Assembly: GCF_018977255.1 (NCBI RefSeq)
Contig: NW_024704762.1
Span: 9,176,001 to 9,240,000 of the forward strand
Source: Callorhinchus milii
Taxonomy: Eukaryota
DNA length: 64,000 nucleotides
Direction of reading: 5' to 3'
Part shown: positions 35,201 to 64,000 of the stretch, in pieces
Numbering within the stretch: position 1 is the first letter of the stretch
Layout of the letters: every line of letters starts with the position of its first letter
The notes under the pieces: model-generated
Told to the model about the DNA's origin: nothing
Database searches by the model: none
Seen by the model: only the letters and a program-made list of their open reading frames with translations
Translations under genes and position numbers: made by a program

Positions 35201-35954
35201 CGTGATAGACAAGAGGAACCCAAAGATACAGTGAAAACATCACAACAAGTCAATCAGACCAACAATGTGTTAGGGTCTGGGACTAAAATTCAATGATGTC
35301 TTAGATTTGAACTTTTACGTATGTTCACTCTCTCACTTCCCTCTTGCCCTCCACCCCTCTTGATCCGGTTGCCTTGAGAAGATAGTGTTACCATCATGGT
35401 GTCGGGATTTTGACCTGTTAGACTTGTCAGCCCATTTGGATGAAATGGGCAACAAAAACAGTTAACTGACAATTTAATGCCGGATCCAAGCTTCACGTCC
35501 AATCATTGCAAGCGAAGATGGGGTGGGGGGGTGGGGGAACGGGAGGTAGGAGGGAATCCATAACCCACATGCGATTCAATCTGTTGTCTAGTCATTGATG
35601 AAATGGAACCGTCAACACTTTGATGGTGAGATACAGGTAGTGAGGTGGCCTCGCCAAGCTCCGCTCTATTGAGACTTTTGACTTGCAGAAACCCAACAGA
35701 ATAAAAACGAAGGGGATAAAATAACTCAAGTCTTATCTGTTGAGGTTCTCGTGATGTCATTTCCTTCTTCCCCACAGTGTCAGGAGATTGGACTTTGGTT
35801 TCCTGCTGTTCCTGATGCTTTTTGTTATCAATGTCTAATATGAGGAGGATGTGAGTTCCGACTCTCTCTCCTCCTTCTCTCTCTCCCTCTCTTTGCACTT
35901 CCCAAGGGAGCAAAGACACAGTGGGCTGACTGAGCTCTTTGAAGCCAACCAATA

Positions 35955-38404
35955 ATGGTTGGGTCTCGGATGCCCCTGGCTCTCCTTCTGTCAGTCCTGT
36001 TAATGTCCTACACAAGATTCTGCTGTTCACAGAGAGGTAAGAAATTTGTCTCTTTATTAGAATGAGTCTTGCATCTTTTGCCCGGGCCAATAGTTTTCTA
36101 TGTAATAATAACCCTGGCATTTGGTACAGCGCCTTATCAAGTTGATGAGACGTCTCAAAGCGCTTCACAGGATATATTGTGAAGTGGAGTGACTGGGTAT
36201 TTTGTGGGCAAAACATGGCAGCCAATTGCGACATAGATTGAATGGCCAAATTTCTTTTTTTTTAATTACCCCCGGAAAAGCAAGTAAGAGAGGGAGAAGG
36301 CATTTTGGAAGAATTGGTTCCACAGAGCAGGGATAGAGAGGCTGAGAGTTCAGTGACTGATGGTGGGACGAGGGGAAAAGTGGGGGGGGGGGGTAAGACT
36401 TGCAGCAAGACTGCATTTGGGGATCAGAGGGTATGTGTGGGGGAGAGCAAGGCTAGAAATTATTTTTTTCTATCATGCAGCTTCCCCAATTTCACCCCCA
36501 AAAATACACAGTCACTCCACTTTGAGTGTATCCTGCGAAGCGCTTTGAGATGTCTCGACGACTTGATACGGTGAGAGCTACATATCAAATGCAAGGATTA
36601 TTATTGTTGTTAATACAACATAAACCTCGGAAACCGCTATGGACAAGAGACACCCAACTCATCACACTCCCTTACTTTACTTGAGAGTCCCAGGTGTTCC
36701 TTTGGTTTCCTCAGTTCAGAGCCACAGTAAATTGGCTATATATTAAGTTTGCGCTGATGGGATCTGTAGATAAGATGAGAGCTAAGAGGTCATAGTTTCA
36801 GTACACCCCACCCCCCTGTCTTGGGGTCGTGCTCCACCACTATCAAGCGCTCTACTCTGCCTGAGGGGCGCTGAGTAAATGCAAATTGTTGTTGCTGTTG
36901 TTGTTGTGAACGAGAATGACGTGAAGGGTCTGAAGTCCAGGAGGGAATAAAATACAGAGATAAAACCATCTAAAAGCCATAATTAAACTAATAACAACAA
37001 TAATAATAAAAATAATTCTTGCATTTTATGTTCTGTATTTTTTTTCCCGCCCCGGCCTTATCACGTCTTCGAGACGTCTCAAAGCGCTTCACAGGGCACA
37101 CTGTGGAGTGGAGTGACTGTGTGTTTTGTGGGTGAAACTCTATTCTCTCCTCTCTGTCTATTGCAGACAACAACAGCAATTGCTTGGGAAGAGTCTTAAC
37201 CTTCACAAATTGTCAAGCCGACATAGGTAACCCCCTCCCGAACGGAGTCCTGGACAAATCGGCCAAATATCACCTGACCAGCCCCATCACCACGGTAGTC
37301 ATCCCCACCCTTTACACCTTGGTCTTTCTCTTCGGTTTGCCGTCCAACGGGCTGGGTCTTTTGACGCTGGTCCTAAAGATGGAGAAGACGCCGTCCACCA
37401 TCTTCCTGATGAACCTGGCGATGGCAGATCTGCTCGTGATCCTCATGCTCCCCTTCAAGATCCACTACCACTTCCTGGGGAACCACTGGGTGTTCGGGGA
37501 AGCTCTGTGCCGGACACTGACTGGCCTGTTCTACGGGAACCTGTACTGTTCCGTGTTGCTCCTCACCGCCATCAGCATCGACAGGTACCTAGCTTTAGTC
37601 CATCCCTTCTTCTCCAGGCGCTTCAGAGACAAGAGCTTTGCCATTTGTACCTGTGCCGTCATCTGGGTGTTGGTTGGTGTCTCCCTGATGCCATTGCTGC
37701 TCCAGAGACAGGTCTATACCTTCGAGGATCTGAACATCAACACCTGCCACGATATGTTGCCCGAGATCGAGTCCGATTACGTCCTCTATTACTTTGTCTG
37801 CCTGGTTGTGCTTGAGTTTGCAATCCCGTGCCTCATCATTATATTCTGCTACACGTCGATAATAAGGACCTTGATTGTGAACAAGAAGAAATACGCACGA
37901 GCTGCTAAGATCACCTTTCTGCTCCTCATAGCTTTCCTTCTTTGTTTCGCTCCCAGTAACATCACCCTTCTCATCCATTACTCTGTCCATCCTCGCACGC
38001 ACAACCACAACATCTACTTGTATTACTTGATCTGCCTAGCACTCTCCAGCTTCAATAACTGTCTTGACCCTTTCCTGTACTATTACATCTCGGATGAGTT
38101 CAGGGAGAAGGTTCGAAGCCTCTTTAGGGATGCAGAAGGCGAACACTCTCAGAAAACATCCCACAAGCTCATGTCAGCCAACACCTGCTCCAGATCGCCG
38201 CAAATGGCTTCTCTTCCACCCCCCGCACTGTCTCATGTGGTGTCCCTCAGGGCTCTGTCCTCGGTCCCCTCCTCTTCACCCTCTATATGCTCCCCCTTGG
38301 TGACATCATCCGCAGACATGGAGTTAACTTCCACATGTATGCGGATGACACCCAACTCTACCTTTCCTCCTCTACTCTCAACTCCACGACCACCGATGTC
38401 CTGA
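35955..38404 (+). CDS. Proteinase-activated receptor (PAR3/PAR4-like), PAR-A, 439 aa; exons 35955-36036 and 37167-38404
   Basis: Signal-peptide exon [33 protein letters not shown] (phase 1) joins in frame at TTGCAG/AC. 7TM has [32 protein letters not shown] and DPFLYYY. The C-terminal ~65-70 aa are read from an inserted LINE. Confidence 0.9.
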
Positions 38405-39415
38405 CAGCTGTCTGTCTGACATTGAGTCTTGGACGAGAGACAACTTTCTTCAGCGAAAAACCGAGGCCCTCCTGATTGGCTCACGTCAGCGCCTCCGCAC
38501 CTCAGGCGCCGACACCATCAGCATCCAAGGCTGCACTCTCCACCTCTCAAAGCCATCAGGAACCTCAGCGTTTTGTTCGACCCTGAGCTGTCCTTTCTCC
38601 CTCACATCCGCACCACAACTGGCACCGCCTTCCATCACCTCCGGAACATCGCCAGACTACGGCATTACCTCACCCCTCACGCGGCTGAAACTCTGGTCCA
38701 CGCCTTTATCACCTCAAGGCTGGACTATGGGAACTCTCTCCTCGCGGCCTCCCCAGCCCTCCCTCCACACTGCAGGTCATTCAGAACTCTGCAGCTCGTG
38801 TACTGTCCCGCACCAGACACCGCGACCACATCACTCCCACCCTCGCTCGCCTCCACTGGCTCCCCATCCCCCAGAGGATTGATTTCAAGATCCTCATCCT
38901 CACCTACAAGGCCATTCACGGCCTCGCTCCCTCCTACCTCTCTAACCTACTATCCCCCTACCTACCTGCCCGTACCCTCTGTTCCTCCGGCTCCGGTCTG
39001 CTCCACATCCCCCGCCCCAACCGCCCTACCATCGGTGGTCGGGCCTTCAGCATCTCAGCCCCGAGGCTCTGGAACTCCATCCCCCAGTGCCTTCGCCGCT
39101 TCCTCCCTCTCCTCCTTCAAGGCCGGTCTCAAAACCTTTCTCTTTGACCGAGCCTTCAGCTCCCCTCTCGACTCTCTTCCCCCTCCTCGCTCCCTCCCTT
39201 CCCTCCCCTCACCCTGACCATTTCCCGCCTCCTCGCTCCCTCCCTTCCCTCCCCTCACCCTGACCATTTCCCCCCTCCTCGCTCCCTCCCTTCCCTCCCC
39301 TCACTCTGACCATTTCCCCCCTGCTCGGGTCCTGACCCAACTGTATTGGGCCTTGGGACGTCCTCCTGACGTGAAAGGCACTTTATAAATGGAATCTTGT
39401 TGTTGTTGTTGTTGT
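38194..39415 (+). mobile_element. L2/CR1-clade LINE inserted at the PAR-A C-terminus
   Basis: YADDTQLY and SRLDYGN RT motifs; collinear with 7430-8537; (TTG)n tail at about 39398-39415. Confidence 0.92.
39175..39325 (+). repeat. ~45-bp pyrimidine-rich tandem repeat x3 in the LINE 3' UTR
   Basis: CCTCCTCGCTCCCTCCCTTCCCTCCCCTCACCCTGACCATTTCCC repeated. Confidence 0.85.
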
Positions 39416-39984
39416 AAGTTTCACTCCAGGCTTTAGCTCAGAGCAGTTGTGTGCTTGGAAAGAGCATAGAGGCTAAGCTTTAGCTGCTCAACAACGACAA
39501 CAACTTGCACTTATGTAACGCCCATCGCGCCGGACAGGATCTCGGAGCGCTTCATCCATAATCGGAACTCTTTACTGTTGCATTTGATATCACGTCCTAT
39601 CTCGTCAAAGTGCCTCAATCCGGGGCTGATAATCCCTTCAAAAAAACAAAAAAATTTGGTCGCTTAAACCACGACTGACAATTGCTCTGCGCAATTGTCC
39701 CACGGCTGATCAGTTATAAATTAATAACTCTCTGTTGTATTAATAATATTGTGTGAAATCTAACAAGGATTTTTTTTCCAGATTTTTAATAAAAGGAGCA
39801 AATCTCCGTTTTGTCTTAAAATGTCGCTTTGTGTTTTTTTTCAGTCAAAGCTTCGAAATCCCTGGACACCTGGTAATTGATGTCTCTCTCTCTCTCTATT
39901 TCTGTTGCCTGTTCCAGCAAACCTACCTACATCCATTATCAATTGGCTGCCCACAAAATATACAGTCGGTTCACTTTACACTTG

Positions 39985-40640
39985 GGGGAGGGTGGAGGGC
40001 AGGGTGGAAGCAGGGAGATCGAAAGCATGGTCGAAGAGGAAGGTCTTGAGACAGGCATTGAAAGTGACAAGGGAAATGAGGCACAGGGACTGCGAGATGG
40101 AGTTCCAGAGGGTGGGGACAGAGTGGTGGAAGGCCCGCCCGCAGGTGGTAGGGCGAGCGAGACGAGGGACGTGAAGCAGGCCTGGAGCCCGCTGAGCGGA
40201 GGGAGCGAGCAGGATGGTAGGGGGTTAGGAGGTCGCAGAGGTAAGGGGGGAACAAGACAGTGGAGAGCTTTGAGGGTGAGGACCAGGATCTTGAGCTGTA
40301 TCCTCTGTGTGATGGGAAACCAGTGGTGTTGGGCGAGGATGGGAGTGATAGGGTCACGGAGCCTGGTGCAGGAGAGGACAGGGGGTGCAGAGTTCTGGGT
40401 GATCTGCAGCCTACGGTGGGAGGATTTGGGGAGGCCGACAAGCAGGGAGTTTGCAGAGTCGATGTAATGAAGGAGTGTATGAGGGTCTCGGGGGCCTTCG
40501 GTGTGAGACAGTGTCGGAGCCGGGCGACGTTGCAGAGGTGGGGGAAGGGAGAGCGGATCATGGCGCAGATGTGGGGTAGAAAGGATAGCTGGGGGTCAAA
40601 CAAGACCCCAAGGTTTCCGGATGGCTTAGCAAGGTGGACC
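39985..40640 (-). mobile_element. L2/CR1-clade LINE 3' fragment
   Basis: NLGVLFDPQLSFLPHI motif; same family as 7290-8537. Confidence 0.85.
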
Positions 40641-40842
40641 ATCTGATTAGTTTTTGAAAGAATCGGCACGTTCTAGATGTTCGATACGTTTACTACTGAA
40701 ACAGTGTCTCTGCAGATTTGTTCCGAATTTACCCCCTTCAATCATTACAACACAAATATACGGTCAGTTCACTTTACAGCATATTCTGTGAAGCGCTTTG
40801 AGACGTCCAGAAAATGTGAAAAGCACTACGTCAAATGCAAGG

Positions 40843-40873
<31 letters not shown>

Positions 40874-41188
40874 GCACTTCTGTGGAACATACACAACATT
40901 CAAGAGTAACGTGTGTTGGTGGGCTATTTTACTTGAACAAGTTATGTCAGGAAATTGCTCCTCACCCTTACATCGAGAACATGTGCTAACTTGAGTTAGC
41001 TCAGTTTAAAGGCATTCTCGCTAATCTGTTCCTATTTACCCAATCCAATCATATCCTATGGAAATGCCCAAGTAGGAAATAACATTCCCAGCTTAGGAAA
41101 CTGGAACTAGTTGGTTTGGAGGGAGCGAGAGAGAGACAGAGAGACAGAGAGAAAGAGTATGTTGGAGGTGGGAGGCAAATGTGCCATT

Positions 41189-44100
41189 ATGAACAACCCT
41201 CATCTGTTACAAACTCTTCTCTTCTCTCTCTTAATATCCTCGGCTTACGGTGGTAAGTTTATAATTTTACTTCATTCAAAGTTCCTGGGGTGACAAAAGT
41301 AATAAAGAGTGGCTACGGTCTGGAAGGCACTGCCTGAGAGGTTGGTGGAAGCAGATTCGATAGTAGCTTTCGCGAGGGAACTCAACAGGGACTCGAAAAG
41401 GAAACATCTGCAGGGCTATGGGGTAAGGGGGCAGAGGAGTTGGATAGCTCTTTGAAAGAGCCGGCAACTCCATGGTGATAATAGTAATAATAATAAGAAT
41501 AATCCTTGTATTTGATGTAGAGCCTTATCAGGTTGCCGAGATGTCTCAAAGTGCTTCACAGAATATATTGTAAACAACCATAACTTGCATGTGGAGTCCT
41601 GTAGCTCAGTGGTTAGAGCACTCGCTTTGCAAGCAAGAGACCTGAGTTCAATTCCAGGCAGGTCAGGGCGAAACCTTGGGCAAGTTTCCTTACTCCACAC
41701 AGAGCCTAATAATAATCCCTCCAAAAAACAAAAACAATAATTAAATTGGTCATTTTCAATCTATGACTGTTTGTGGGACATTGCTGTGCGCAATTGGCTG
41801 CCGCGTTCGCCCACAAATATACAGTCAACTCACTTTACAGTATATTCTGTGAAGCGCTTTGGGACGTCCTCCCGACGTGAAAAGCGCTATATCAAATGCA
41901 AGGATTATTATTATTATTATTTATATAGCGTCCCGGAGCTCTTGACAGTGGAGGAGTCGGACACCGAGGCAGAGGGGAGGTGGGGGGGGGGGGTGGAGAA
42001 GTGACCGTAAGCCCGATCAAAAAGGAAGGTCTTTGAATAGGATTTGAAAGTGGGCAGGGAGGGTGCGAGGGGGGGCGATTGAGGGAGAGGGCTCCAGAGT
42101 TTTGAGAGGATCTTGAATTCGATCCGTTCAGTGACGAGTTATCAGGAGTGGTGAGTATAAATACATAAATAAATTCAGTGGGGATATTGACAGTGTGATG
42201 ACTTAAATGGTAGTGACAAGTAAACCAGGGTCAAGTTATCAGGAGTTTACTGTTATTATTAAAGATGATATTATTAGTAATACGTGATTTAAGTGCTGTA
42301 AGATGTTTCATTTTAAACTTCATAAAAATATAGAGTTATTCTTAAATCTTACGAATCCCAATTTGATATTCATCCCAAAATATTTGTTGGAAACTCAGGA
42401 CAAGTTTGATGTGATCAGTTCGATCAAGTTCAAGGATTGTTATTGTTATGATGATGATAACTGTGATTTATGGATGCTTTATGATACGAAAGTGGATTGT
42501 ACTCCAGTCTGGGTGAGCTGTGAAGGTGTTTCAGCGCCTTGGGACGTCCTCCCGACGTGAAAGGCGCTATACAAATTTAATCTTGTTGTTTCTCCCTGAG
42601 CGCTGGTGAACAAAACTCATGAAAAAAAATTGGTCACTCGTTCCACGGTTGTTTGCAATACACTACTGGGCACAAACTGTCTGCCATGTTTCACCCACAA
42701 AAACACACAGTCACTCCACTTTACACTGTATTCTGTGAAGCGCTTTGAAACGTCTCGACGACGTGATAAGGCGCTGTATGAAAGCAACAACAACAACAAA
42801 GTTACACTTGTATAGCACCTTTCACGTCGGGAGGTCATCCCAAGGTGCCGGACAGACAGGGTTACGGACCCGAGCTGGGGGTTCGGATGGGGGAGGGTGG
42901 AGGGTAGGTGGGGGGAAAGCAGGGAGATCGAAAGCACGGTTGAAGAGGGGAGGGTCTTGAGGTGGGTCTTGAAGGTGGCGAGGAAGGGGGGGGGGGGAGG
43001 CAGTGGGACTGCAGGATGGAGTTCCAGAGGGTGGGGGCAGAGTGGCAGAAGGCCCACCTGCGAATAGCGCGGCGAACGAGGACATGAAGCAGGCAGAGTA
43101 AGAATTATTATTATTATTATTAGTTATTATTATTATTTTAGTAACTTGCTGGTGGAAGAGCTTTTCCAATGTTAATTCATCTAATGCTATTCCTCCTGAG
43201 CAGATGGCGATGGGAACACGACAACTGATATAGTCGAGACAATCAAATACTTTATTATTCACGAATCTAGCTTGATAACTTTCAAGAATCTCAGCGTCAA
43301 TGAGCTTGAGAATATGACTGACTATGTCTGGAAAAACCTCACCATCTACAAGGTTGACAACATCACGAGAGGCCACTTGACTGGTGCGGTCACTACGGTG
43401 TTCATTCCAACTCTCTACATTCTGGTGTTCGGCATTGGGCTGCCCGCCAACGCACTGGGGCTCTGGATAATGATCACGAAAATCAGGAAGCTGCCCTCCA
43501 CCATCTTCCTCATCAACCTGGCCACCTCAGACCTGCTCCTCATCCTCATGCTGCCCTTCAAGATCTCCTACCACCTGATGGGCAACGACTGGATATTCGG
43601 CGAGGCTTTGTGCCGACTCTACACCGGGCTCTTCTACGGCAACATATACTGCTCCATCCTCCTCCTCACCTTCATCAGCGTCGACCGCTACTTCGCCCTG
43701 GTCCACCCGTTCCTCTCGCTGGGCTTCAGGGACAAGAGGCTTGCCTGTGGTGTTTGCCTGGGCACCTGGGCCCTGGTGTCTCTCTCTCTGCTGCCTTTCC
43801 TCCTGGTGCAGCAAACCTACCATATCCACAACCTAAACGTCACCACCTGTCACGACTCGTTGCTCTCGGAGCAACGTAGCGGCTATTTCTTCTATTACTT
43901 CGCTTCCCTGGTCATCGTGGAGTTTGCCCTGCCCTGTGCCATCACCCTGTTCTGCTACGGCTCCATCATCAAGACCCTGGCGTTCAACGAGAAGAAATAC
44001 AAGCGGGCGGCGGGCGCGACCACCCTCACCCTCCTGGTCTACGTGCTGTGCTTCACTCCCAGCAACGTCATCCTCCTGACTCACCACCTGCAGTTCTTCC

Positions 44101-44381
44101 TCAACCACCACAGCGACCTGTACATCTACTACATGCTCAGCCTGGCTCTCAGTGGCTTCAGCAGCTGCCTGGATCCCTTCATCTACTATTTTGTGTCCGA
44201 CGACTTCAGAGCCAAGGTCCAAGCGACACTTTGCTCCCGCAAGGAGAAGGGCGGCCGGGAAACCTCGCCAAAAGTCTTGCGAGTGAAGCCCCCCATCAAC
44301 ACGGTCCCCTTGACATCCTCCTTCACCTCCACCGCCACAGCCGCAGCCGCGCCCCAGCTTTTGAACAGCCTGGAGACCTGA
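41189..44381 (+). CDS. Proteinase-activated receptor (PAR3/PAR4-like), PAR-B, 413 aa; exons 41189-41252 and 43204-44381
   Basis: Signal exon MNNPHLLQTLLFSLLISSAYG G/GTAAG; acceptor GAGCAG/AT in frame with the 369-aa ORF; GLPAN, DRY, TTCHD and DPFIYYF motifs. Confidence 0.93.
41591..41921 (+). mobile_element. tRNA-derived SINE, young subfamily
   Basis: GTGGAGTCCTGTAGCTCAGTGGTTAGAGC head (A box), TTGCA anticodon-like loop, GAGTTCAATTCC B box and (ATT)n tail. Confidence 0.9.
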
Positions 44382-46514: not shown

Positions 46515-47483
46515 ATGAACTCTCCACATCTGATACAAACTCTTCTCTTCGCTCTCTTAATCTCCTGTTGCACTTCTGACTTCTTGAGTTACAACTGTAA
46601 GTTTATCATTTTACTGTATTCAAAATTCCTGGGATCACAAAGATAACATAAGGGTTGTTACGGTCTGGAACGCACTGCCTGAAAGGGTGGTGGAAGCAAA
46701 TTGGATAGAAGTTTTCAAAGCGGAATTGGGATAGTACTTGAAAAGGAAATCTTGGCTGTGGGGTACAAGCCGGGGGAGTAGGACTCGTTGGTGGCTCTTT
46801 CTAAGACCTGCACCTGCACGATGGGCCGAATGTCCTCCTTCTGTGCTGTGAGATTCTATGATTCTATGAAACTTTTGTTACGAGGTTAAGTTTTCCCGAA
46901 GCTTTCTGTTCGGCTCTGCTTTCGAGACTGCGATGTCTGAAACGGGTGAAAATGTTCACACAGGTTACCAACAGATTATCAAAGGGCAGAGAGGATTCAT
47001 TTATTAAAGGGGTGGTGTGTGGGGAAGGGGAAAAGGGGTAATTTACGGGCGTATACCCACAAAATCCACTTTAAGTACATTCTGCAAAGCGCTTTGAGAT
47101 GTCTCGACGATGTGAAAGGAACCATATCAAATGCAATCAAAGGATTATTATTATTATAATGTGCCCTAATTAAAATTATTATTATAATAATTCATTTGAA
47201 CCGGAGCCTTTTGCGCGTGTAGTTTTTTTTATTTTGAGTGTATAACGGTTCATCTCAGGGCGCAGAAAACAAGATATTAAAAGAGACACTGAAACTCGTG
47301 ACTGGGGCTCTCGAATTCGAAATAAATTCTTTCCGAGAGATTCTGCTTCAAATCGAAGCTGAAAATTTACAGAAACAAAACCAGCCATCACCGTTTCGCT
47401 GTCTGTCAAAAGTTTCCTTCCTCTAAATTAAGTGGTTTTGATAAAAGTGTAAATAAACAAGCGATTAGAAAGAGACTTCAAAG

Positions 47484-47514
<31 letters not shown>

Positions 47515-49612
47515 CCTTGCATTTGATATAGCGCTTTTCACGTCGGGAGGACGTCCCAAAGCGCTTCACAGAACACACTGTAAAGTGAATTGACTGTATA
47601 TTTGTGGGCGAACGCGGCAGCCAATTGCGCACAGCAATGTCCCACAAACAGTCGTAGATTGAAAATGACCAATTTTTTTTTTATTATTATTTTTGGTTTT
47701 TGAAGGGATTATTATTAGGCGTGTGGAGTAAGGAAACTTGCCCAAGAAACACAGTGGCTGGAACCGGTGTCGAGTGCACAGAATCTTCCTGCCTCCATCC
47801 GGCCACTGTCTTTGGAAGGTTTAAGCATTTGTGTGTCTTGAAAGTTGATTTTTTTGTTCTCCTTAAAGCAAAAGACTGGAGTCTAACTTGCGATATTTCT
47901 TTCTTAACGGTAATCAACAACCACAGTAACAACAAAGCGACGTGTGGAAAGCGCCTTTCACGTCAGGAGCACGTCCCGCGGTGCCGGACAGACAGAGTTA
48001 CGGACCCGAGCTGAGGGTCAGGGTGGGGGAGGGCGGGACAGCGGGGGTGGGGGGTGGGGGGAAGCAGGGAGATCGAAAGCAAGGTCGAAGAGGAGGGTCT
48101 TGAGGTGGGGCTTGAGGTGGGGTGACGAGAGAGGGGGCGAGATGGAGGGATTGCGGGATGGAGCTTCAGAGGGTGGGGGCAGAGTGGAGCAAGGCCTCGC
48201 GTAACGCTGATCGTGGGGCGAACGAGGCGGTGGATGTGAAGCAGGCCAGAGCCCACTGAGCGGAGGGAGCGAACAGGGTGGCCGGGGAGTTAGGAGGTGG
48301 GAGAGGTCGGGGGGAGCAAGACCATGGATGGGCTTTGAAGGTGAGGACCTGGATCTTGAACTGTATCCTCTGTGTGATGGGAGGCCAGCGGAGTCGGGCG
48401 AGGATGGGGGTGATAGGGTCGCGGAGCCCGGTGCTGTGGAGGGAGAAGTTGGGGGAGGCCAACAAGCAGTGAGTTTGCGCAGTCGAGCCTTGATGTAATG
48501 AAGGCGCGTACGAGGGTATGAAGTTTCCTCACTCCGCACACCTCTGTTCACCGAGCAGCAAGTAGGAAACCGGTTAGTCGATTGGCAGATCGCATTTCCT
48601 GAGCTTAATCATCCTTCAACAATAAATGAATAAAATAATATTTTTTTAAAAATTGGTGACTCACTCAATCCAGGACTGTTTGTGGGAACCTGCTGCGCGC
48701 AATTGGCTGCTGCTTTTCGTCCACAAAATACAGTCACTTGACAGTATATCCTGTGAAGCGCTTTGAGACGTCTCAAAGACCGGTTAAGACTCTATATCAA
48801 ACGCAAGGATTATTATTATTAATTAATAATAAGTGGATTATTATTATTAATAATAATAAGTCTCTCCCTGTCCCTCTGAGTCCCCTCAAAGGTGGCCAAC
48901 TTTTGGTGTGATGCAACGTGAATTCATCTATTTTTTTTCTTCCACTTGTGTTTGCAGTCACAGATTACAATTACGAGAGAAGTATAATGCTCAATGAGTC
49001 GACCTACAATTACGAGGGAAGTATAATGCTCAATGAGTCGACTGACTTTGCAATGTCGAAAGCAAATCCCAGAGGCTTCCGTCCTCATTATGAATTGATA
49101 CCAGTGATTGTCACCATAAATAACAGAACCTTCTACACAATGAAGAACCTCAGCAACGTTGACAACATCACGAGAGGCCACTTGACTGGTGCGGTCACTA
49201 CGGTGTTCATTCCAACTCTCTACATTCTGGTGTTCGGCATTGGGCTGCCCGCCAACGCACTGGGGCTCTGGATAATGATCACGAAAATCAGGAAGCTGCC
49301 CTCCACCATCTTCCTCATCAACCTGGCCACCTCAGACCTGCTCCTCATCCTCATGCTGCCCTTCAAGATCTCCTACCACCTGATGGGCAACGACTGGATA
49401 TTCGGCGAGGCTTTGTGCCGACTCTACACCGGGCTCTTCTACGGCAACATGTACTGCTCCATCCTCCTCCTCACCTTCATCAGCGTCGACCGCTACTTCG
49501 CCCTGGTCCACCCGTTCCTCTCGCTGCGCTTCAGGTGAGCAAATACTCAGAGTAGAGTCAGTAGATGTGGAGGTTCACTCTTCGTGACAATGCTACTGTT
49601 TGAAGGCAGACA

Positions 49613-49647
<35 letters not shown>

Positions 49648-50469
49648 TCTTTCCATCGTGAAGTCCCGTAGCTCAGTGGTTAGAGCTCTCGCCTTGCAAG
49701 CGAGAGGACCCAGGTTCGATTCCCGGGTGGGGCAAAGCCTTAGGCAAGTTTCCTTACTCCACACACACACACTTTTTTTGATGCAACAAAGACGTGATAA
49801 GGCGCGCCGTCAAATGCAAGGATTCTTATTGTTGTTACTATTATTATATTCAGGGACAAGAGGCTTGCCTGTGGTGTTTGCCTGGGCACCTGGGCCCTGG
49901 TGTCTCTCTCTCTGCTGCCTTTCCTCCTGGTGCAGCAAACCTACCATATCCACAACCTAAACGTCACCACCTGTCACGATGTGTTGCCCTTGAGACAACA
50001 GAACGGCTATTTCTTCTATTACTTCGCTTCCCTGGTCACCGTGGAGTTTGCCCTGCCCTGCGCCATCACCCTGTTCTGCTACGGCTCCGTCATCAAGACC
50101 CTGGCGTTCAACGAGAAGAAATACAAGCGGGCGGCGGGCGCGACCACCCTCACCCTCCTGGTCTACGTGCTGTGCTTCACTCCCAGCAACGTCATCCTCC
50201 TGACTCACCACCTGCAGTTCTTCCTCAACCACGACAGCGACCTGTACATCTACTACATGCTCAGCCTGGCTCTCAGTGGCTTCAGCAGCTGCCTGGATCC
50301 CTTCATCTACTATTTTGTGTCCGACGACTTCAGAGCCAAGGTCCAAGCGACACTTTGCTCCCGCAAGGAGAAGGGCGGCCGGGAAACCTCACAAGAACTT
50401 TTACGTACCACCACCACCTCCACAACGACCAACTTCCTCTACACGTCCCACTCGAAGACCGTAGTCTGA
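46515..50469 (+). CDS. Proteinase-activated receptor (PAR4-like cleavage site), PAR-C, 424 aa if spliced; exons 46515-46596, 48958-49534, 49854-50469
   Basis: Signal exon MNSPHLIQTLLFALLISCCTSDFLSYN T/GTAAG; acceptor TTTGCAG/TC; ANPR/GFRPHY site. The 7TM region is nearly identical to PAR-B but is interrupted by a 319-nt GT..AG insertion whose removal restores the frame. It could instead be a disrupted pseudogene. Confidence 0.8.
47940..48525 (-). mobile_element. L2/CR1-clade LINE 3' fragment in PAR-C intron 1
   Basis: AFITSRLDCANSLL and RIQFKI motifs plus the family 3' end. Confidence 0.85.
49658..49848 (+). mobile_element. Internally deleted tRNA-derived SINE inside the PAR-C insertion
   Basis: GTAGCTCAGTGGTTAGAGC...GGTTCGATTCCC head joined to the GACGTGATAAGGCG..CAAATGCAAGG(ATT)n tail; central core missing. 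Confidence 0.85.
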
Positions 50470-50562
50470 GTGAATAGCCTCTGACTCGCTGGAGACCTGA
50501 CCCCACAGGGAGACTGACTGACTGTCCAGCTTGCCTTGTCAAAAGCAGAATGAATTGTCATC

Positions 50563-50940
50563 TTGTAGCTTAGTGGTGAGAGCGCTCCCCTTGCAGGCGA
50601 GAGGACTTGGGTTCGATTCCCAGCCCGGCAGGGAAAAATCTTAGGCAAGTTTCCTTACTCCACAAGGCTCTGTTTACCTAGTGGTAAGTAGGAACACGGT
50701 TGCCAGTCGATTGGCGCATCGCTTTCCGGGAGTAATAATTCCTTAAAAAAAAATAATAAGTTGGTCACTCAATCCACGACTGTTTATGGGACACTGCTGT
50801 GTGCATTTGACTGCCAGATGTCTCACACAAAATATACAGTCATTTCACTTTACAGTGTTTTCTGTGAAGCGCTTTGAGAAGTCTCAAAGACATGATAAGG
50901 CAGTATATCAAATGCAAGGATTATTATTATTATTATTATT
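50563..50940 (+). mobile_element. tRNA-derived SINE in the PAR-C 3' UTR region
   Basis: Full head-core-tail copy. Confidence 0.85.
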
Positions 50941-52109: not shown

Positions 52110-52260
52110 CCGCCCAGCCGCATCTCCACCAGCTTCCTCTACGGCAACATGTACTGCTCTGTCCTCCTCCTCGCCTTCGTCCGTTATTTCTGGTCTTTCG
52201 CCAGCGTGGGCTGGGTGCCTTGCCATGTCTGCTCGCTCTGGTGCGTGATGTGGCTGTGAT
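52110..52260 (+). pseudogene. PAR pseudogene fragment (TM3-TM4 remnant)
   Basis: RISTSFLYGNMYCSVLLLAFVRYF matches TM3 of the neighbouring PARs (FYGNMYCSILLLTFISVDRYF) with a deletion in the DRY region; flanked by SINE and LINE pieces. Confidence 0.75.
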
Positions 52261-53509
52261 CAGGGCTTTCATTCTCAGCCAAAGGAGAAGCAGTGAAGGT
52301 GCTAACAAGCGGGAAAATCACTACACTACCGGGACTCCAATATTAAGAAGAACATTAAGACTCAATTGAATTCCTCGTCCCCCGAGTCGTCCGCTCCACC
52401 CTCGGTGGCCGTGCCTTCAGCCACTGCGCCCCGAGGCTCTGGAACTGCCTCCCTCCCTCCCTTCGTCTCGTTCCCTCCCTTCCCATTTTCAGATCTCTGC
52501 TGAAGACCTTTCTTTTCGACCGTGCCTTTGGTCACCTTCCTCCCCCACTCCCCCCCACTCTTCCCTCTCCCACTCCCCCCGGCTCGGCCCCGGGATCCGT
52601 TACCGTGAAGCGGTACTGAGCCGCCTTCCGACACTGAGCCGCCCTCCAAACCCAAGTTGTTGTTGTTGAATTCTCAGGAGTGACAGAGTGGGCAGCTGAA
52701 CTGACTCCAACGCTGCATTGAAAGCACCCGTCAATCACAATTCACTCTACAGTATATTCTGTGAAGAGTTTTGAGACGTCTCGAAGACGTGATGAGGCGC
52801 TGTATCAAATGCAAGGATTATTATTAGTAGTATTATCTCAGCCGCTCGACCACACATTACAAAACTCTAACAGATGTTTCCTTTCCCTGTGAACTCTAGG
52901 TGTGGAATAATAAAATTAAAGAGATTGTTCTTTTGTGACTCGAATCTTTGTTTTTCACTTCAGTAATTCTCTTGGGTTCAACTTCTGCCAGGGACATTGC
53001 ATTGACCACAAAGCGTCTGACCACAGAAGAGTTGCGAGCAGCTGAGATGTGTCACACTGGTCTGGTTGCAATCCAGTGCCCTTCCTCAGCGATCACACTC
53101 TCCATTCCTGTTTCTCTCAACCCCGTGACCCTCTGATCCCTATGTCCTGCGGAGCTTTTGTTAATAATTCGACAGGCGGTGCTAAGAGAATAGAATTTAT
53201 TGCCTAAGATGAAACGTAAGGTTTTACAATCTGTAATCAAATTATACGACATATAACAGCACAACATCAGTACAGCACATCTGTGTGAGCAAAACATTTA
53301 CCACACAGCACGCACAAGGGTTGATCAGTACTCCAGACAAACAACACCCCACAAAATTTACAGCAGAGATCAGGGACAACTGATTCTGTAACACAAAACT
53401 TCAGAAGACAGACAATCCCCATTCAGCCTCTGGAATCGCCCCTCAGATCCTCACAGTACCTTGCAGCCCTTAGTACTGACCATACAGGGACAACAACACG
53501 TATCCAGGC

Positions 53510-54020
53510 ACCTTGGAGGGGGTGCAGTGTAGATTTACTAGATTAGTACCAGGGATGAAGGGGATGAGTTACGAGGATAGGCTGACCAATTTGGGCCTAT
53601 ATTCTCTAGAATATAGAAGAATTAGAGCGGATCTTATAGAAACCTATAAGATCATCAAAGGGTATGATAGAGTAGATAGTGGGAGATTGTTTCCCCGGTT
53701 GGAGAAACTAAAACCAGGGGTCACAACCTTAAAATCAGAGGCAGCCCTTTCGCACTGAGTTGAAGAAGAACTTCTTCACTCAAAGGGCAGTGAATGTATG
53801 GAACTCACTACCCCAAAGGGCTGTTGACGCTCAGTCCTTGAACATATTCAAGACTGAGATAGATAGATTACTTATTGCAAAAGCGATTAAGGGATATGGG
53901 GATAAGGCAGCGTCAGGTTATTAGCTGGAGTTAGATTAGAAGATCAGCCATGATTGGATGGCGGGGCAGGTTCGAAGGGCTGAATGGCCTACTTCTGCTC
54001 CTGTATGTTATGTTATGTTA
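53510..54020 (+). mobile_element. CR1-type LINE 3' end
   Basis: LEGVQCRFTRLVPGMKGMSYEDRL..LGLYSLE.RR.R.DLIETYKI is the typical CR1 ORF2 C-terminus; (ATGTT)n tail. Confidence 0.9.
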
Positions 54021-54043
54021 CGTTTCGTACTCCAGACTAAGCA

Positions 54044-54044
<1 letters not shown>

Positions 54045-54102
<58 letters not shown>

Positions 54103-54410
54103 CCTTGCATTTGATATAGCGCTTTTCACGTCGGGAGGACGTCCCAAAGCGCTTCACAGAACACACTGTAAAGTGAATTGACTGTATATTTGTGGGCGAA
54201 CGCGGCAGCCAATTGCGCACAGCAATGTCCCACAAACAGTCGTAGATTGAAAATGACCAATTTTATTATTGTTTTGGTTTTGGAGGGATTATTATTAGGC
54301 TCTGTGTGGAGTAAGGAAACTTGCCCAAGGTTTCGCCCTCTGCCTGGAATTGAACTCAGGTCTCTCACTTGCAAAGCGAATGCTCTAACCACTGAGCTAC
54401 AGGACTCCAC
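54045..54410 (-). mobile_element. tRNA-derived SINE, young subfamily, long (ATT)n tail
   Basis: Reverse complement nearly identical to 56790-57132. Confidence 0.9.
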
Positions 54411-56789
54411 AGTAGACCTGGGATCACACCTTGACATACACTGGAGATATCACAGAACTATCACACAGAGTCACAGAGAACGACTCCTGGAAACCTAACA
54501 GAAACCATCGGCTCTTAGCCCATACTCGTACTGTCTAACCTGATTTCTGTGGTTCAAACGGACCAACCACTACTATTGTAATTACTTCTCTGCCTAGCAA
54601 ACAGAACCAAAAGCATATTACCCAGTGACTACTCCTCCTCTTCCACTTTTAATGGTCACTTTCTTACTGGAGGTAAATTCCCTCACCCCGTACATATACA
54701 TAGACACACAGTAGAATCGATATCGGTTCCACTGGGAAGTGCTGACCCTTTACACAACTCCAATTATTCCAAAGTTACATCTTTCTGTCTTTTAGGTGTT
54801 TCTAACTCCACAGGTCACAGATATAGATAGCCCCCATCCTACGCAGCTGCTTTGCACAGAGAGAGACACGGACAACTTCCGGGCAGCCTCCCACAAGTCT
54901 TCTCAGCCTCGAGATAGACAGGCTTCTCTTTCTGCGGTCCATTGCTCTTGCATCTATGCTGAAGGACCCGATGGCTCATTATCTCAGAGGAGTGAACATC
55001 TTCCCAGGAAAAAAAAGAAATACATTCAGAAGCTGACCTCAGCCCATCCAGCAAAGCTACTTTTAACCATTTAACTATCAAACCTTCTGGAAAACTTGGT
55101 TGCTGTTTGAAAATATATCAATGTATCCCGAGGCAATAGTTAATATATTTCAACATTTTGAGATTCCCTTGCCCGACCCACCCCATCCCGAAACCTTGGC
55201 TCCAGCCAACCTATGTTTGAACGCTCCGGGATTACATAAATAGGAACATAGGAGCTGGCCATTCAGCCCCTTGAGCCAGTTCCACTTTTCTATAAGATCA
55301 TGGTTGACCTATACCTTAACTTAACTCCATTTCCCCGCCCTTGCCCCCATTAAATTAGATCAGGTAAACAGAGATCTCTCTAGCGCACAAACGGAAACTA
55401 GATTATATGAAACTTTAAATAGATTGGTTTGAAACCTCTAAGCCTCACTGATGTCACAGACCACTTCACAATAATAATAACAATAATAATAATCCTGGCA
55501 TTTGATACAGCGCCTTATCACGTCACAGAGACGTCTCAAAGCGCTTCACAGGAAACACCGTAAAGTGGAAATGACTGTGCATTTGTAGGCGAACCACATG
55601 GCAGCCAATTGCCACAGCAACATCCCATAACTAGCCATGGAGTGAGCAACCCATTTTATTTGGGGGGATTGTCGGCCGGGAGAGACGGAAATTCTCTTCT
55701 CTTTTCGAATAGTGTCACGGGAGATCTTTAATGTCCACCTGAACAGAGCAGACGGGACCTTGGTTTAACTTCTCACCTGAAGGACGGCACCTGCATCAAT
55801 GCAGCAATGCACCCCCAGCGCTGCATTGGAGTGTCATCTTAGACATTGTGAATCTAAGTTCCTATCTGAGGCTGAAGCCCACAACCTTCTGAATCCGAGG
55901 CGAGAGCATTACCCACAGCACCAGACTGATACACAATTGGTATAGTACTAAATTTACTTATTGCCTGGTGTCAGCAGTTGTGACAGCTCAGGGCTGACGT
56001 TGTATCTGCATGTCATGTACAGATTTTTTTGCCAAATATAAAGCTCAGATTTCCCGTGATGAAATAATCCTGTGCATTGTTTTCTTCCACTTACGCAGTG
56101 ACCAATTTGGATACTTCGAAAAGGGAACTTGTTAAACACTGCAATGTCGCAATGTCTGGAATTTTCACATCTCCCCTCGTCACCATCCCCACCCTCACCC
56201 CCACACATTTTCACACACAGATAGAAGTGCACAAGCGGTTCTATTCTAATCAGAAGACCACAAGAGAGTGCAGAAGGCTCTGCAACACATTTGACCTCAT
56301 CCTGTAGCTCAGCAGTTAGAGCACTCGTCTCACAAGCGAAGGACCTGGGTTTGATTTCCGGCACGGCAAAATCTTGGGCGAGTTTTCTTATTCCGCACGC
56401 CTGATAATAGTCCCTCAAGAAAAAAAATAATAAATCGGTCACTTCAATCCGGGACGCTTCTGTGCGCAATTGGTTGCCTCGTTTCGCCCACAAATATACA
56501 GACAATTCACTTTACAGTATATTCTGTGAAGCGCTTTGAGACGTCAAGAAGACGTGAAAAGCGCTGTATCAAATGCGAGGATTATTATTATTATTATTTA
56601 TCCACCTTCACAGCATCGAGCAGTTTCTCAAATGAGTTACCACCCTAACCTGTTAAATTAAGCAATTTTAAGCAAAGTAAAATCCAGTGCTTTGGGATGT
56701 CCTTTCGAATGTGAAAGGCGCTGTATAAATATAATTTGTCGTTGAAGTTGTCCATCACAATTGTCCTGTACTCATCTTGATCTTGATTT

Positions 56790-57097
56790 GTGGAGTCCTG
56801 TAGCTCAGTGGTTAGAGCACTCGCTTTGCAAGCGAGAGACCTGAGTTCAATTCCAGGCAGAGGGCGAAACCTTGGGCAAGTTTCCTTACTCCACACAGAG
56901 CCTAATAATAATCCCTCCAAAACCAAAAACAATAATAAATTGGTCATTTTCAATCTACGACACTTTGTGGGACATTGCTGTGCGCAATTGGCTGCCGCGT
57001 TCGCCCACAAATATACAGTCAATTCACTTTACAGTATATTCTGTGAAGCGCTTTGGGACGTCCTCCCGACGTGAAAAGCGCTATATCAAATGCAAGG

Positions 57098-57132
<35 letters not shown>
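56790..57132 (+). mobile_element. tRNA-derived SINE, young subfamily
   Basis: Full-length copy with intact A and B boxes. Confidence 0.9.
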
Positions 57133-57559
57133 CCCACTCCATCCCCCAAAAATCCTTTCCTTCTCAGGAGTGTTTGCCCTGAAGACAAGCACTGAATATC
57201 CTGAATCTGCCCCGTTGTCCCCCTGCTGCAGGAAGAAACGTTAAACTAATTTAGTTTTGAGCAGTCATGTTAGTTGAAAGTGTGAAATAGAAGTGATTAA
57301 TTCACTTCCTTAAAGTTCTAAACCAATTGTGGCACAAGATTCTCAGATACTCAGACACACACGTCACATATCATCTGTATCAAGATTTTATAGTCCGGCT
57401 GCTCTGAGTGATGTGATCGAGTTTTTTTCCTCTTCTGTAACTGCTGGAACTGACTGTCGGAGTTGTGTCGGAGGCAATCTATCGGTAGACACTTCGTTCA
57501 GTGAGCAGTGACCGTTTCCATTTGCTGAGCCACACAGACAAGCCACACTGGCTACCAGA

Positions 57560-60422
57560 ATGCTGCCATCACCCTCGCCTGGATCAGTGGTCCTCCTGCT
57601 CGTTCTCAGTTGCTTAGCCACAGCCTTCTCCACACATAACTCTGACGGTAAGACACTGACCTTCTTTCCAGTCACTCTTAAGAGACTCATAAGGGGAGAA
57701 ATTACGCCCGGGTCTGGATTCATTCCGTTTTCGTAGCATTTAAAAGAGAGTTCAGAATTTGGCAAATTGTTAAAACACTTCCCTTTACTGAATATCTCGT
57801 AGGTTTGGTGTTAGCCTGGCTCACTTTGGTAGCACTCCTACCTCTGAGTAAGAAGTAACCCGAGGAACCTCTGAAGGTTGTGGGTTCAAGCCCCACATTG
57901 GGACTTTGAGCTCTTATGTCTCGGCTGACGTTTTCCAATGCAGTGCTGCGGGTAATGCTGCACTGTTGAAGCTGCCTGTTCAAGTAGATGTTAAAGGTAC
58001 TAGAAAAGAGGAGGTTTCTCCCAGTGACTTAGCCAACAATCCCTGGATAAAATATGTCATTCACTTTATGCGTGTTGATGGAACGTTGCCGGGTGCAAAC
58101 TGGCCGCACAATTTGTCCTTAAAACACACGGTCACTATACTTTGAAACCCCAGTTCAACGGGGAGGGTTTCAGGTGGGATTTTAAACAGCCAGGGAACAG
58201 GGCGAAGGTGGAAGGATTTGGGGAGAGTTCCTGAGATCAAGCACAAAGCAACCAGGAGATTGGCCACCATTTGTGAAGCAGAAGCAGACGGAAATCGTGA
58301 GATTAGACGTGGTCGGAGGAAAATGTAGAGATAAGAGTCTTGCACATTCAACACAGGATCTGAGGTCCCGCTCATGCAGCCACTTTTAGTGCAACCTTCA
58401 GATAAGATGTTAAATGTTAGATCTGGCGTCCTGTAGAGTAGTGGTTAGAGCCTTCGCCTCGCAAGCGAGAGGACCCTGGTTTGATTCCCGGGCAGGACCC
58501 AAACTTAGGCAAGTTTCCTTACTCCACATGCCTCGGTTTACCTAGCTGTAAGTAGGTGGCCGTTGGTCGATCGGCGGATCGCTTTTCTGGGGGCTAATAA
58601 TTCTTTCAAAATAAATAAATAAATTGGTCACTCAATCCATGACTGTTTGTGGGACACTGCTGTGAGCAATTTACTGCCACATCTTGTGATAAGGCGCTAT
58701 ATGAAATGTAAGGATATTATTATCCCTTCTGTATGTTTACTCCTACCTCCGTTCCCACAAAATGCTCCAGTGTCATTGCTAATTCCTTTAAACTCACTTC
58801 CTCTTTGCAAGTACTATGGTGCAAATGAGATGCCTGCAATAATTTCGAAAATGTCTGAGGAACTGGAAGAGGACCTTCAGCCCCTCGAACCTGTTTATCC
58901 ATTCTATAAGATCATGGCTGATCTGTACCTCAACTCCAATTACCCGCCTTTGCCCCATATCCCTTGATACCCTGACCTAACAGATATCTATCCACCTCAG
59001 TCTTGAAAATTTGCATCCAGCCAGAATCCACAGCCTTTTGGGGGAGTTTCTTTTTTAAAAGAACTTTTGTGAGGTCTGGAGAATTGCTCATCCAAAGGCA
59101 GAACTACACCCAGATAAATTGCTCCCCACCCGCCCTGCCCCCTCCTTTCCCATCTTCAGGTCGCACCTGAAGACCTTCCTATTCGACCGTGCCTACGGCT
59201 ATCTGCCCCCTCCCCCAGGCTCGGCATCATGCTCGGCCACTGCCAAGAGCTCTGGGAAGCTATATAAATGCAAGTTGCTGTTGTTGTTATTTCGGCAGTG
59301 ATATCAAACAAATGCAGGGATTCTGAATCATAAAAGGTACTTATTCCTTCCCTCTCTTTCCGTACAGTGATAGAAAAAGCACAATTCCCCAAGTCCAGAA
59401 AATTTCCCATCTATTCGGTTACACAAGATGGTTCAAACCAGACCATCCACAAAGTCAATGAATCGGTCACCAACTACCTGACCGGCAAAGAGATGACACT
59501 GGTGATACCCTACCTGTATTTGGCGATCTTCACCATTGGCCTTCCCGCCAATGCCTTGGCTTTCTGGGTTCTCTTCAGCAAAATCAAGAGGCTTCCCTCC
59601 ACCATCTTCTTCCTCAACTTGGCCTTGGCTGACCTGCTCCTAATGCTTGCCTTACCTCTCAAGATCTCCTACCACCTGTTGGGCAACGACTGGCTATTCG
59701 GGGAGGCCATGTGTCGGGTGTCCAGTGTGATCTTCTACGCCAACGTGTACTCCTCCATCCTGCTACTCACCTGCGTGGCTGTGGACCGTTACCTGGCAGT
59801 GGTCCATCCCTTCTTCTCAAAGGAGCTCAGAACAAGGTCATTCGCCTGGTTCCTCTGTGGCGTTAGCTGGGCTCTGGTATTATTCGCCATGCTGCCCTAT
59901 TACGTCACCCAGCAATCCTACCCAATCGCCGAACTCAACATCACCACTTGCAACGAATTCTTACCCTCCATTGTCCTCGCCAACTATTTCGACAATTACA
60001 CTGTGGGCCTGGTTGTGTTTGGGTTTGTCCTTCCCTGCCTCATCATTGTATTCTGTTACGTGTGTGTGATCAGAATTCTAGTACTCAACCGGGAGAATTA
60101 CACACAGGTCATTAAGGTGACTTTGTTGGTCTTACTGGTATTTCTGATGTGCTTGACTCCCGGGCAGGTCTTCCTATTAATCCAAATTTATACAAATAAC
60201 ATTGACTTTTATAAATATTTCTTGATTTTCCAAATTCTCAGCACTTTCAATAGCTGCATTGACCCATTCATCTATTACTATGCCTCCAGTGAATTCAGGG
60301 CCAAACTGAAGGGGGCAATCTCTACTAACCAGAAAGGGAGCGTACAGGTGTCTAGTAAAACAAAACTGTCAATGCTACAGACTAACAGTTCATCCCAGGC
60401 CAGTGGTCCTGTGCCAGTTTAG
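57560..60422 (+). CDS. Proteinase-activated receptor-like, PAR-D, 380 aa; exons 57560-57647 and 59368-60422
   Basis: Signal exon [35 protein letters not shown]; acceptor polypyrimidine-TACAG/TG in frame; [29 protein letters not shown] and [11 protein letters not shown] motifs. Confidence 0.92.

Positions 60423-62545: not shown

Positions 62546-64000
<1,455 letters not shown>

Follow-up and report, generated by a model that had tools for sequence, protein, structure and literature searches.

A tandem array of protease-activated receptor genes in Callorhinchus milii and its probable origin as an old expansion of the PAR4 branch

The 64,000-nucleotide stretch of Callorhinchus milii DNA analysed here (contig NW_024704762.1, positions 9,176,001 to 9,240,000; hereafter the window) carries a tandem array of four intact genes for protease-activated receptors (PARs). 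All four, termed PAR-A, PAR-B, PAR-C and PAR-D, lie on the plus strand and match Pfam 7tm_1. Judged from their sequences, the array is probably an old cartilaginous-fish expansion of the PAR4 branch, composed of modular sensors, each predicted to be switched on by a trypsin-type cut after Arg or Lys that exposes the receptor's own tethered ligand. According to the proposed mechanism, the N-terminal segment (its P2 residue, first ligand residue, tether length and N-glycans) would set the activating protease of each receptor. Gene conversion would keep the neighbouring seven-transmembrane (7TM) signalling cores alike, sparing the ligand-contacting second extracellular loop (ECL2). PAR-C would have survived a retroelement-containing insertion, the duplicated target site of which may have supplied the splice sites of a new intron.

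The receptor array and its position among the PARs

The product of PAR-B is 100% identical to the NCBI C. milii "proteinase-activated receptor 3-like" protein (P0001), and the best sequence matches of PAR-A, PAR-B and PAR-D in the PDB are PAR1/2/4. RefSeq already contains these genes, some of them within fused models and under inconsistent names (PAR2-, PAR3- and PAR4-like), and what is new is the history and the architecture of the array rather than the protein family. Models P0312 (865 aa) and P0313 (812 aa) join PAR-B to PAR-C and PAR-C to PAR-D, respectively; these fusions are likely errors of annotation, through which PAR-C is not visible as a gene of its own. The shared layout described in the first-pass annotation, a signal-peptide exon with a GTAAG donor followed by a phase-1 intron, was recovered in all four genes; PAR-C departs from the other three in that a second intron interrupts its large coding exon.

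Phylogenetic trees were computed from the 7TM columns only, using hand-picked rows from which isoforms, fragments and redundant taxa had been dropped (FastTree, 89 of ~270 proteins; IQ-TREE with LG+G4, 40 rows; LG+C20, 39 rows). In all three trees, PAR-A to PAR-D and the shark and ray proteins fall within the PAR4 branch, sister to PAR3, and support for the PAR4 group is 97 (FastTree), 91/93 (LG+G4) and 90/89 (LG+C20). In the LG+C20 tree, 13 chondrichthyan rows, including all four array receptors, form one starred clade (97/89), within which PAR-D pairs with catshark and skate proteins (100/99) and PAR-B plus PAR-C are sister to a shark/ray group (99/96); the position of PAR-A beside the elasmobranch A and E types is not resolved.

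Approximately unbiased (AU) tests rejected the four receptors as a single clade (p=5.6e-6; 5e-8 in a second set). Of the twelve pairings of array genes with the PAR1, PAR2 and PAR3 clades that would express one-to-one orthology, five were tested and all were rejected: PAR-A with PAR2 (p=0.024), PAR-D with PAR1 (p=2e-4), PAR-B/PAR-C with PAR3 (p=0.009) and, using six PAR3 rows, PAR-A with PAR3 (p=0.022) and PAR-D with PAR3 (p=1e-4). The phylogeny called for by the first-pass annotation thus bears out its view that these genes are not simple one-to-one counterparts of PAR1-4. Its further proposal of a recent, species-specific burst of birth and death fails on the same trees, as the PAR-A, PAR-B/C and PAR-D lineages each have shark or ray orthologs. 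As sharks and rays have these lineages too, the expansion is older than the separation of chimaeras and sharks ~400 million years ago. We therefore regard the array as an old expansion of one branch, best placed in PAR4 (F2RL3), its placement there as against PAR3 not being firm.

Heptranchias and Pristis possess five paralogs each, apparently on one chromosome-scale contig; the Pristis PAR1 is listed on a contig different from that of its five array paralogs. The E, F and G ectodomain types of elasmobranchs have no intact counterpart in the window, and no other holocephalan is named among the protein matches to the array queries. A sturgeon PAR3 query returned no named chondrichthyan in the best 120 of 191 matches, which is not proof of absence. 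Accounts of PAR evolution have so far recognised four clades, drawn from bony vertebrates. In the excerpted text of Jin et al. 2016 (PMC4771116), two to three PAR4 copies are reported in coelacanth, Xenopus and birds, most PAR genes are described as two-exon genes, and the species list names no cartilaginous fish. Within the mostly open-access literature covered, no title or abstract opening on PARs in cartilaginous fish was found, which is weak evidence of novelty.

Candidate cleavage sites, tethered ligands and ligand pocket

The four hexapeptides put forward in the first-pass annotation as tethered ligands are all encoded (at 37193, 43248, 49074 and 59400), and three of them, those of PAR-B, PAR-C and PAR-D, carry Phe at position 2, as had been claimed. 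The P1 residue is Arg or Lys in each of the four, so that established PAR biology points to trypsin-type serine proteases as candidate activators. The assignment of the sites themselves holds to different degrees. Those of PAR-A and PAR-D are backed by conserved spacing in orthologs (14/14 and 2/2, respectively; the two PAR-D orthologs show R-[RK]-F), and those of PAR-B and PAR-C by motif homology only. For this comparison the elasmobranch proteins were assigned to ectodomain types by visual inspection; types BC, D and F correspond to tree clades, and the A and E types are not separate in sharks. The shark/ray BC type displays an Arg or Lys at one fixed distance from the first transmembrane helix (TM1) in 13/13 proteins, followed by a small residue and then an aromatic one (position 2) in 12/13. 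The PAR-C site resembles the R/GYRP site of Mobula, and the PAR-B and PAR-C ligands share Phe2 and His5. The conservation of sites agrees better with protease sensors retained over long periods than with rapid tuning driven by parasites.

The PAR-C ectodomain also contains a 39-bp tandem duplication (48966-49042). In the first copy an Arg precedes SIMLNE, a possible second cut, and in the second copy Gly occupies that place; each copy adds an N-glycosylation sequon.

Local alignment of the ectodomains gave no significant match in any of the six pairs (shuffle p 0.08-0.94, PAR-B/PAR-C lowest). The earlier description of the ectodomains as unrelated is correct to that extent, with the qualification that PAR-B and PAR-C are themselves related genes (7TM core 96% identical in amino acids; promoter to intron start 76%). 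From the sequence preferences of the proteases, PAR-C (Pro-Arg/Gly-Phe) is presumably a thrombin sensor, and we take PAR-A (Gly-Arg/Val-Leu) to be a PAR2-like sensor of trypsin or factor Xa. PAR-B (Lys/Tyr) and PAR-D (Arg/Lys-Phe) would be atypical sensors, in which pocket changes accompany the unusual first ligand residues.

Excerpts of the cryo-EM studies of PAR1 and PAR2 (PMC12033368, PMC11443083) place ligand contacts and switches at His, Asp, Val and Leu of ECL2, at the tyrosines 3.33, 6.59, 7.32 and 7.35, and at His6.58; Val257 of PAR1 is described there as contacting ligand residue 1. We scored eight pocket positions (ECL2 His, Asp and Leu, 3.33, 6.58, 6.59, 7.32 and 7.35). PAR-A keeps 8/8, as in the PAR1 and PAR2 rows, PAR-B and PAR-C keep 7/8 each, and PAR-D 3/8. 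The single departure in PAR-B and PAR-C is a His at 6.59, common in many shark paralogs. In PAR-D, the ECL2 His is replaced by Asn and the Asp by Glu, with Gln at 6.58, Ile at 6.59 and Phe at 7.35; the losses at the ECL2 His, 6.58, 6.59 and 7.35 are common to both orthologs. PAR-B has Ser where PAR1 has Val257, beside its Tyr-first predicted ligand. For both PAR-D and PAR-B we prefer co-adaptation of ligand and pocket, as suggested by these substitutions, over loss of canonical signalling.

AlphaFold2 models of cleaved PAR-B and PAR-C have a mean predicted local distance difference test score (pLDDT) of 91 over the 7TM region, and of 58 and 56, respectively, over the first 10 residues. The PAR-C model superposes on the PAR1 structure with Z 39.4 and a root-mean-square deviation of 1.5 over 298 aligned residues; alignment to PAR structures begins at residue 18-19.

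The F-type elasmobranch paralogs (P0034, P0037, P0042-P0044, P0049, P0050, P0052, P0053 and P0374) form a clade with its own pocket residues. Instead of a conserved basic site they mostly show a Pro-x-x-Gly-Gly motif, and 4/10 lack Arg or Lys in the scanned segment; the signal exon is missing from many of the models. These paralogs may be sensors of non-trypsin proteases or may be exposed constitutively.

Probable gene conversion between PAR-B and PAR-C and the extra intron of PAR-C

The cores of PAR-B and PAR-C differ at 17 positions over 914 nt, and none of 149 fourfold sites differs, whereas promoter, exon 1 and intron start have diverged to the extent given above. Near-zero silent divergence in the core, together with diverged flanks, therefore forms a gene-conversion pattern. 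Eleven of the 17 differences fall within the 24 nt directly following the ECL2 cysteine, where 6/8 residues are changed; none of 100,000 permutations equalled this clustering. Counted by codon, the core differences comprise 11 nonsynonymous and 2 synonymous changes. The near-identity of the two genes is likely due to gene conversion that spared a ligand-contact island in ECL2, and the simple birth-and-death mode of the first-pass annotation gives way here to concerted evolution.

A similar pattern is seen in sharks. In six of six species, within-species pairs of A- and E-type proteins are 92-98% identical over TM2-7 and 24-42% over the ectodomain, and in Heptranchias and Stegostoma the A/E core identity exceeds the best cross-species identity of the same type (83 and 77%). 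Among bony fish, Amia (P0060, P0063) and Polypterus (P0046, P0309) have two PAR4-like proteins each, apparently on one contig; the Amia pair combines 91% core identity with unlike N-termini. The shared-core pattern may thus extend to bony fish.

The insert within the PAR-C coding exon starts with GTGAG, ends with CAG and is bounded by a 6-bp direct repeat, TTCAGG; left unspliced, it would stop translation immediately. About 60% of it is a short interspersed element (SINE), the tRNA head of which is recognised at 49663-49734 (48.2 bits). The insert has no counterpart in PAR-A, PAR-B or PAR-D, and the PAR-B exon is continuous at the same site. Sequencing-run contigs were compared over 48900-50600 in 4 of 13 runs (X1, X2, X3 and X8). 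In each of X1, X2 and X3, which stem from two studies, a single contig continues from 49531 to 49851, its own positions being consecutive across the joint, as expected of canonical splicing. These runs are RNA-like in that neither the sequence upstream of exon 2 nor the unique part of the insert is covered. The spliced contigs show no mismatch over the PAR-C ECL2; those of X1 and X3 begin in the PAR-C-only ectodomain and have one difference each in exon 2a. A contig of X2 joins PAR-C exon 1 to exon 2, PAR-C being the only gene of the array for which this junction has such support. In the DNA-like run X8 both ends of the insert are present, with a 3-nt deletion inside. RefSeq models P0312 and P0313 likewise splice out the 319-nt intron.

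Three other accounts of the insert were discarded. The spliced contigs rule out a pseudogene broken by a SINE, and the presence of both ends in X8 rules out an assembly artefact. An origin of the spliced contigs from PAR-B reads is ruled out by their mismatch-free PAR-C ECL2 and, in two cases, their PAR-C-only ectodomain. Runs and window differ at 49103, 49403, 49560, 49963, 50028 and 50540, the 3-nt deletion of X8 being among these differences, which are likely alleles.

Because PAR-A, PAR-B and PAR-D lack the intron and most PAR genes have two exons, gain in PAR-C is the most parsimonious explanation, and the intron is likely a recent acquisition of this gene. Such intron gain is rare in vertebrates. 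The mostly open-access literature covered yielded no title or abstract opening on the PAR-C intron or on SINE-made introns, again weak evidence of novelty.

Alternative explanations, other features and comparison with known systems

Several observations weigh against the interpretation given above. The PAR4 node is unstarred, the array together with PAR3 is rejected at p=0.037 only, and with three PAR3 rows neither PAR-A with PAR3 (p=0.27) nor the PAR-D lineage with PAR3 (p=0.25) is rejected. The by-eye typing of ectodomains is partly circular, the site of PAR-B is more distant from TM1 by 17 residues, and that of PAR-C by 10, than its counterpart in sharks, so that their resemblance to it is one of motif only, and the tandem repeat of PAR-C offers a second candidate Arg (48981). 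As for conversion, four ray pairs (one across two Mobula species) have cores only 70-75% identical, without homogenisation; AU tests did not reject the A-type or the E-type rows as clades (p=0.066 and 0.061); and ECL2 is identical (12/12) in the Scyliorhinus canicula pair, so that the ECL2 island is not general. In the case of the intron, its 5' 120 nt are not SINE, the RNA nature of X1-X3 is a guess, and its absence was scored only among the window paralogs PAR-A, PAR-B and PAR-D.

The first-pass annotation had favoured a recent lineage-specific birth-and-death process, with receptors tuned to changing host or parasite proteases. The two pseudogenes, the four different sites, the highly diverged PAR-B and PAR-C ectodomains with their almost exclusively nonsynonymous ECL2 differences, and the unequal copy number and types of chimaera and elasmobranchs would agree with it. 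Given that the PAR-A, PAR-B/C and PAR-D lineages are common to sharks and rays, that monophyly of the four genes is rejected and that elasmobranchs retain both the spacing and the residue class of the sites, we find it improbable, and nothing in the data hints at parasite proteases. The proposed protease-sensing repertoire survives in modified form, as a conserved PAR4 array of old chondrichthyan origin whose predicted sensor heads are distinct. A different possibility, which we consider rather doubtful, is that only PAR-A and PAR-C work as sensors, and that PAR-B and PAR-D are cofactors, decoys or receptors for another ligand, as is reported of PAR3. PAR-B, the longer branch of the B/C pair, indeed has a bulky Tyr at ligand position 1 and a derived C-tail, and among the pocket residues lost in PAR-D is Y7.35, described in excerpted literature as critical for PAR2 activation. 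However, the R-[RK]-F site and the pocket changes of PAR-D occur together in both its shark/skate orthologs, and the ECL2 Asn is found as well in a coelacanth protein with R/RF, as co-adaptation would predict; PAR-B, for its part, retains an open frame, the DRY motif and all but one of the scored pocket residues, with Val changed to Ser just at the PAR1 contact to ligand residue 1.

Somewhat less probable still is that the ectodomain types predate the split of bony and cartilaginous fishes, the BC type being tetrapod F2RL3 and the A type the second of the PAR4-like genes present in frogs, turtles and birds, and that the chondrichthyan-only clade is an artefact of core conversion. A profile of the shark BC ectodomain scores 6/8 tetrapod F2RL3 ectodomains at 7-16 bits, above any other type, tether spacing is 22-23 in both, and Gly-Arg/Val-Leu occurs in PAR-A as well as in frog and bird proteins. 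Tests on the 7TM columns reject the two groupings (p=0.0013 and 0.019), though conversion would bias this test; the ectodomain scores are low and, with a bird PAR2 ectodomain reaching 18.7 against the E-type profile, unspecific. Concerning the intron, a two-step origin is a serious contender, to which we give a little less than even weight: a short CT-rich intron would have arisen first, for example by double-strand-break repair, and the SINE would have inserted later ahead of the acceptor. The non-SINE 5' part ends in a CT tract typical of acceptors, the SINE by itself has no flanking direct repeat, and direct repeats accompany repair-type neointrons in Daphnia, according to excerpted literature. 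Yet the (ATT)n tail of the SINE directly adjoins the second of the two 6-bp repeats, the arrangement expected of a single target-primed insertion, and of nine SINE copies scored, one other has a flanking repeat (5 bp).

Beyond the preferred account of an old PAR4-branch array of modular sensors, we tentatively offer a joint reading that is speculative as a whole. Sensor heads would be swappable on shared cores, selection keeping site, ligand and ECL2 distinct and conversion homogenising the cores repeatedly in separate lineages. The PAR-D lineage would use a basic-first ligand and its rebuilt pocket for signalling, some shark paralogs lacking a basic site would sense non-trypsin proteases, and the PAR-C intron would stem from one-step SINE retrotransposition.

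The features of the array are compiled in Table 1. As the first-pass annotation had noted, two pseudogenes are present: tblastn detects two broken PAR remnants, the first of which scores equally against the PAR types. The last ~70 codons of PAR-A consist of L2 sequence read in another frame and encode a predicted Ser/Thr/Pro-rich C-tail followed by a stop. The RefSeq model of PAR-A (P0325) is partial and ends just within the L2 element, and the related L2 copy at 7428-8388 carries a Pfam RVT_1 match.

Table 1. Positions of the receptor genes, predicted ligands, inserted elements and PAR remnants in the window
Feature	Position	Strand	Evidence or remark
PAR pseudogene 1: TM1-TM2 and TM7 remnants, frameshifted, large internal deletion	~34880..35290	+	tblastn with PAR proteins, E ~1e-18
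PAR-A exon 1 (signal peptide), phase-1 donor	35955..36036	+	matches RefSeq model P0325
PAR-A exon 2: ectodomain, 7TM, C-tail	37167..38404	+	
PAR-A predicted ligand VLTFTN after Gly-Arg	37193..37210	+	Gly-Arg at same spacing in 14/14 shark/ray A-type proteins
L2 retrotransposon, 5'-truncated, inserted ahead of original PAR-A stop	38194..39415 (3' end approximate)	+	76% identity over 973 nt to L2 at 7428-8388
PAR-B exon 1 (signal peptide)	41189..41252	+	RefSeq P0001
PAR-B exon 2, unbroken	43204..44381	+	100% identity to C. milii PAR3-like P0001
PAR-B predicted ligand YFIIHE after Ile-Lys (least secure of the four)	43248..43265	+	resembles in motif the shark K/R-[STG]F site and the PAR-C ligand (Phe2, His5)
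PAR-B ECL2 divergence island (SLLSEQRS)	43856..43879	+	
PAR-C exon 1 (signal peptide)	46515..46596	+	loose end of X2 contig at 48958 equals 46567-46596
PAR-C exon 2a: ectodomain, predicted ligand, TM1-TM3	48958..49534	+	
PAR-C predicted ligand GFRPHY after Pro-Arg	49074..49091	+	
PAR-C extra phase-2 GT..AG intron, 319 nt, in second intracellular loop	49535..49853	+	~80 nt unique, CT tract, internally deleted tRNA-derived SINE
PAR-C exon 2b: TM4-TM7, C-tail	49854..50469	+	
PAR-C ECL2 divergence island (VLPLRQQN)	49980..50003	+	
PAR pseudogene 2: short TM3 remnant	~52116..52270	+	tblastn E 3e-7; 82-83% nt identity to PAR-B/PAR-C over 65 nt
PAR-D exon 1 (signal peptide)	57560..57647	+	RefSeq P0059
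PAR-D exon 2	59368..60422	+	
PAR-D predicted ligand KFPIYS	59400..59417	+	orthologs P0051 and P0123: R-[RK]-F at same spacing

The array is flanked in the window by S100 genes and a UBA52-like gene. Five two-exon S100-like genes occupy window positions 3700-27600 (3.7-4.35 kb minus, 6.16-6.9 kb plus, 10.7-11.5 kb minus, 18.6-20.4 kb minus and 24.9-27.6 kb minus), one of which has a Pfam S_100 match, the other four having been recognised by translation. In humans, S100Z adjoins F2R/F2RL1, and the S100 genes beside PAR4-like genes may be the remnant of a paralogon. On the minus strand at 63300-63900 are exons of a ubiquitin-L40 (UBA52-like) gene; the stretch right after the ubiquitin Gly-Gly looks divergent from the usual one, and the gene is possibly a paralog.

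Of the features of the locus, the conversion pattern is among the more surprising, as is the spliced intron with its SINE. The array provides natural variants of the tethered-ligand switch, with Val-, Tyr- and Lys-first ligands and paired pocket changes. PAR-B and PAR-C constitute a ready swap experiment, since their differences are nearly confined to ectodomain, ECL2 and tail. The empty site of the PAR-C insertion is preserved in its twin gene PAR-B, so that both the mechanism and the date of intron birth can be tested; if the proposed origin is true, this would be a datable intron birth in the vertebrate genome that shows the least intron change.

With known PAR4/F2RL3 genes the array shares the two-exon structure, a basic P1 residue with a tethered ligand, the conserved ECL2/TM6/TM7 pocket and the position in the tree. 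It differs from them, as far as the excerpted text of PMC4771116 describes them, in the tandem order of its four intact genes and two remnants, in the presence of as many as five paralogs on one chromosome-scale contig of a shark or ray, and also in the atypical first ligand residues (Val, Tyr and Lys) and the remodelled pocket of PAR-D. As in the mammalian pairs CCR2/CCR5 and, reportedly, CCR1/CCR3, tandem GPCR (G protein-coupled receptor) paralogs would swap sequence and their extracellular, ligand-facing parts diverge. In the PARs, in contrast to the CCR pairs, the ligand is part of the receptor, and what is spared is the cleavage site, the tethered ligand and, in PAR-B/PAR-C, ECL2 of the same molecule. 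Gene conversion of CCR2/CCR5 in mammals, as excerpted from PMC2880985, is the closest precedent. For the intron, the excerpted sources describe transposon-made introns in notothenioids (slc26a2, PMC12357937), intron gains in acanthopterygian GPCRs (PMC3151243) and introners, ~5% of the classified ones being non-LTR elements (PMC12130899). The PAR-C intron resembles such transposon-derived introns in its CAG|G proto-splice site, its phase 2, the direct repeat, the mobile element inside and the exact splicing; it differs from them in that it is described here as a single case and not as one of a family.

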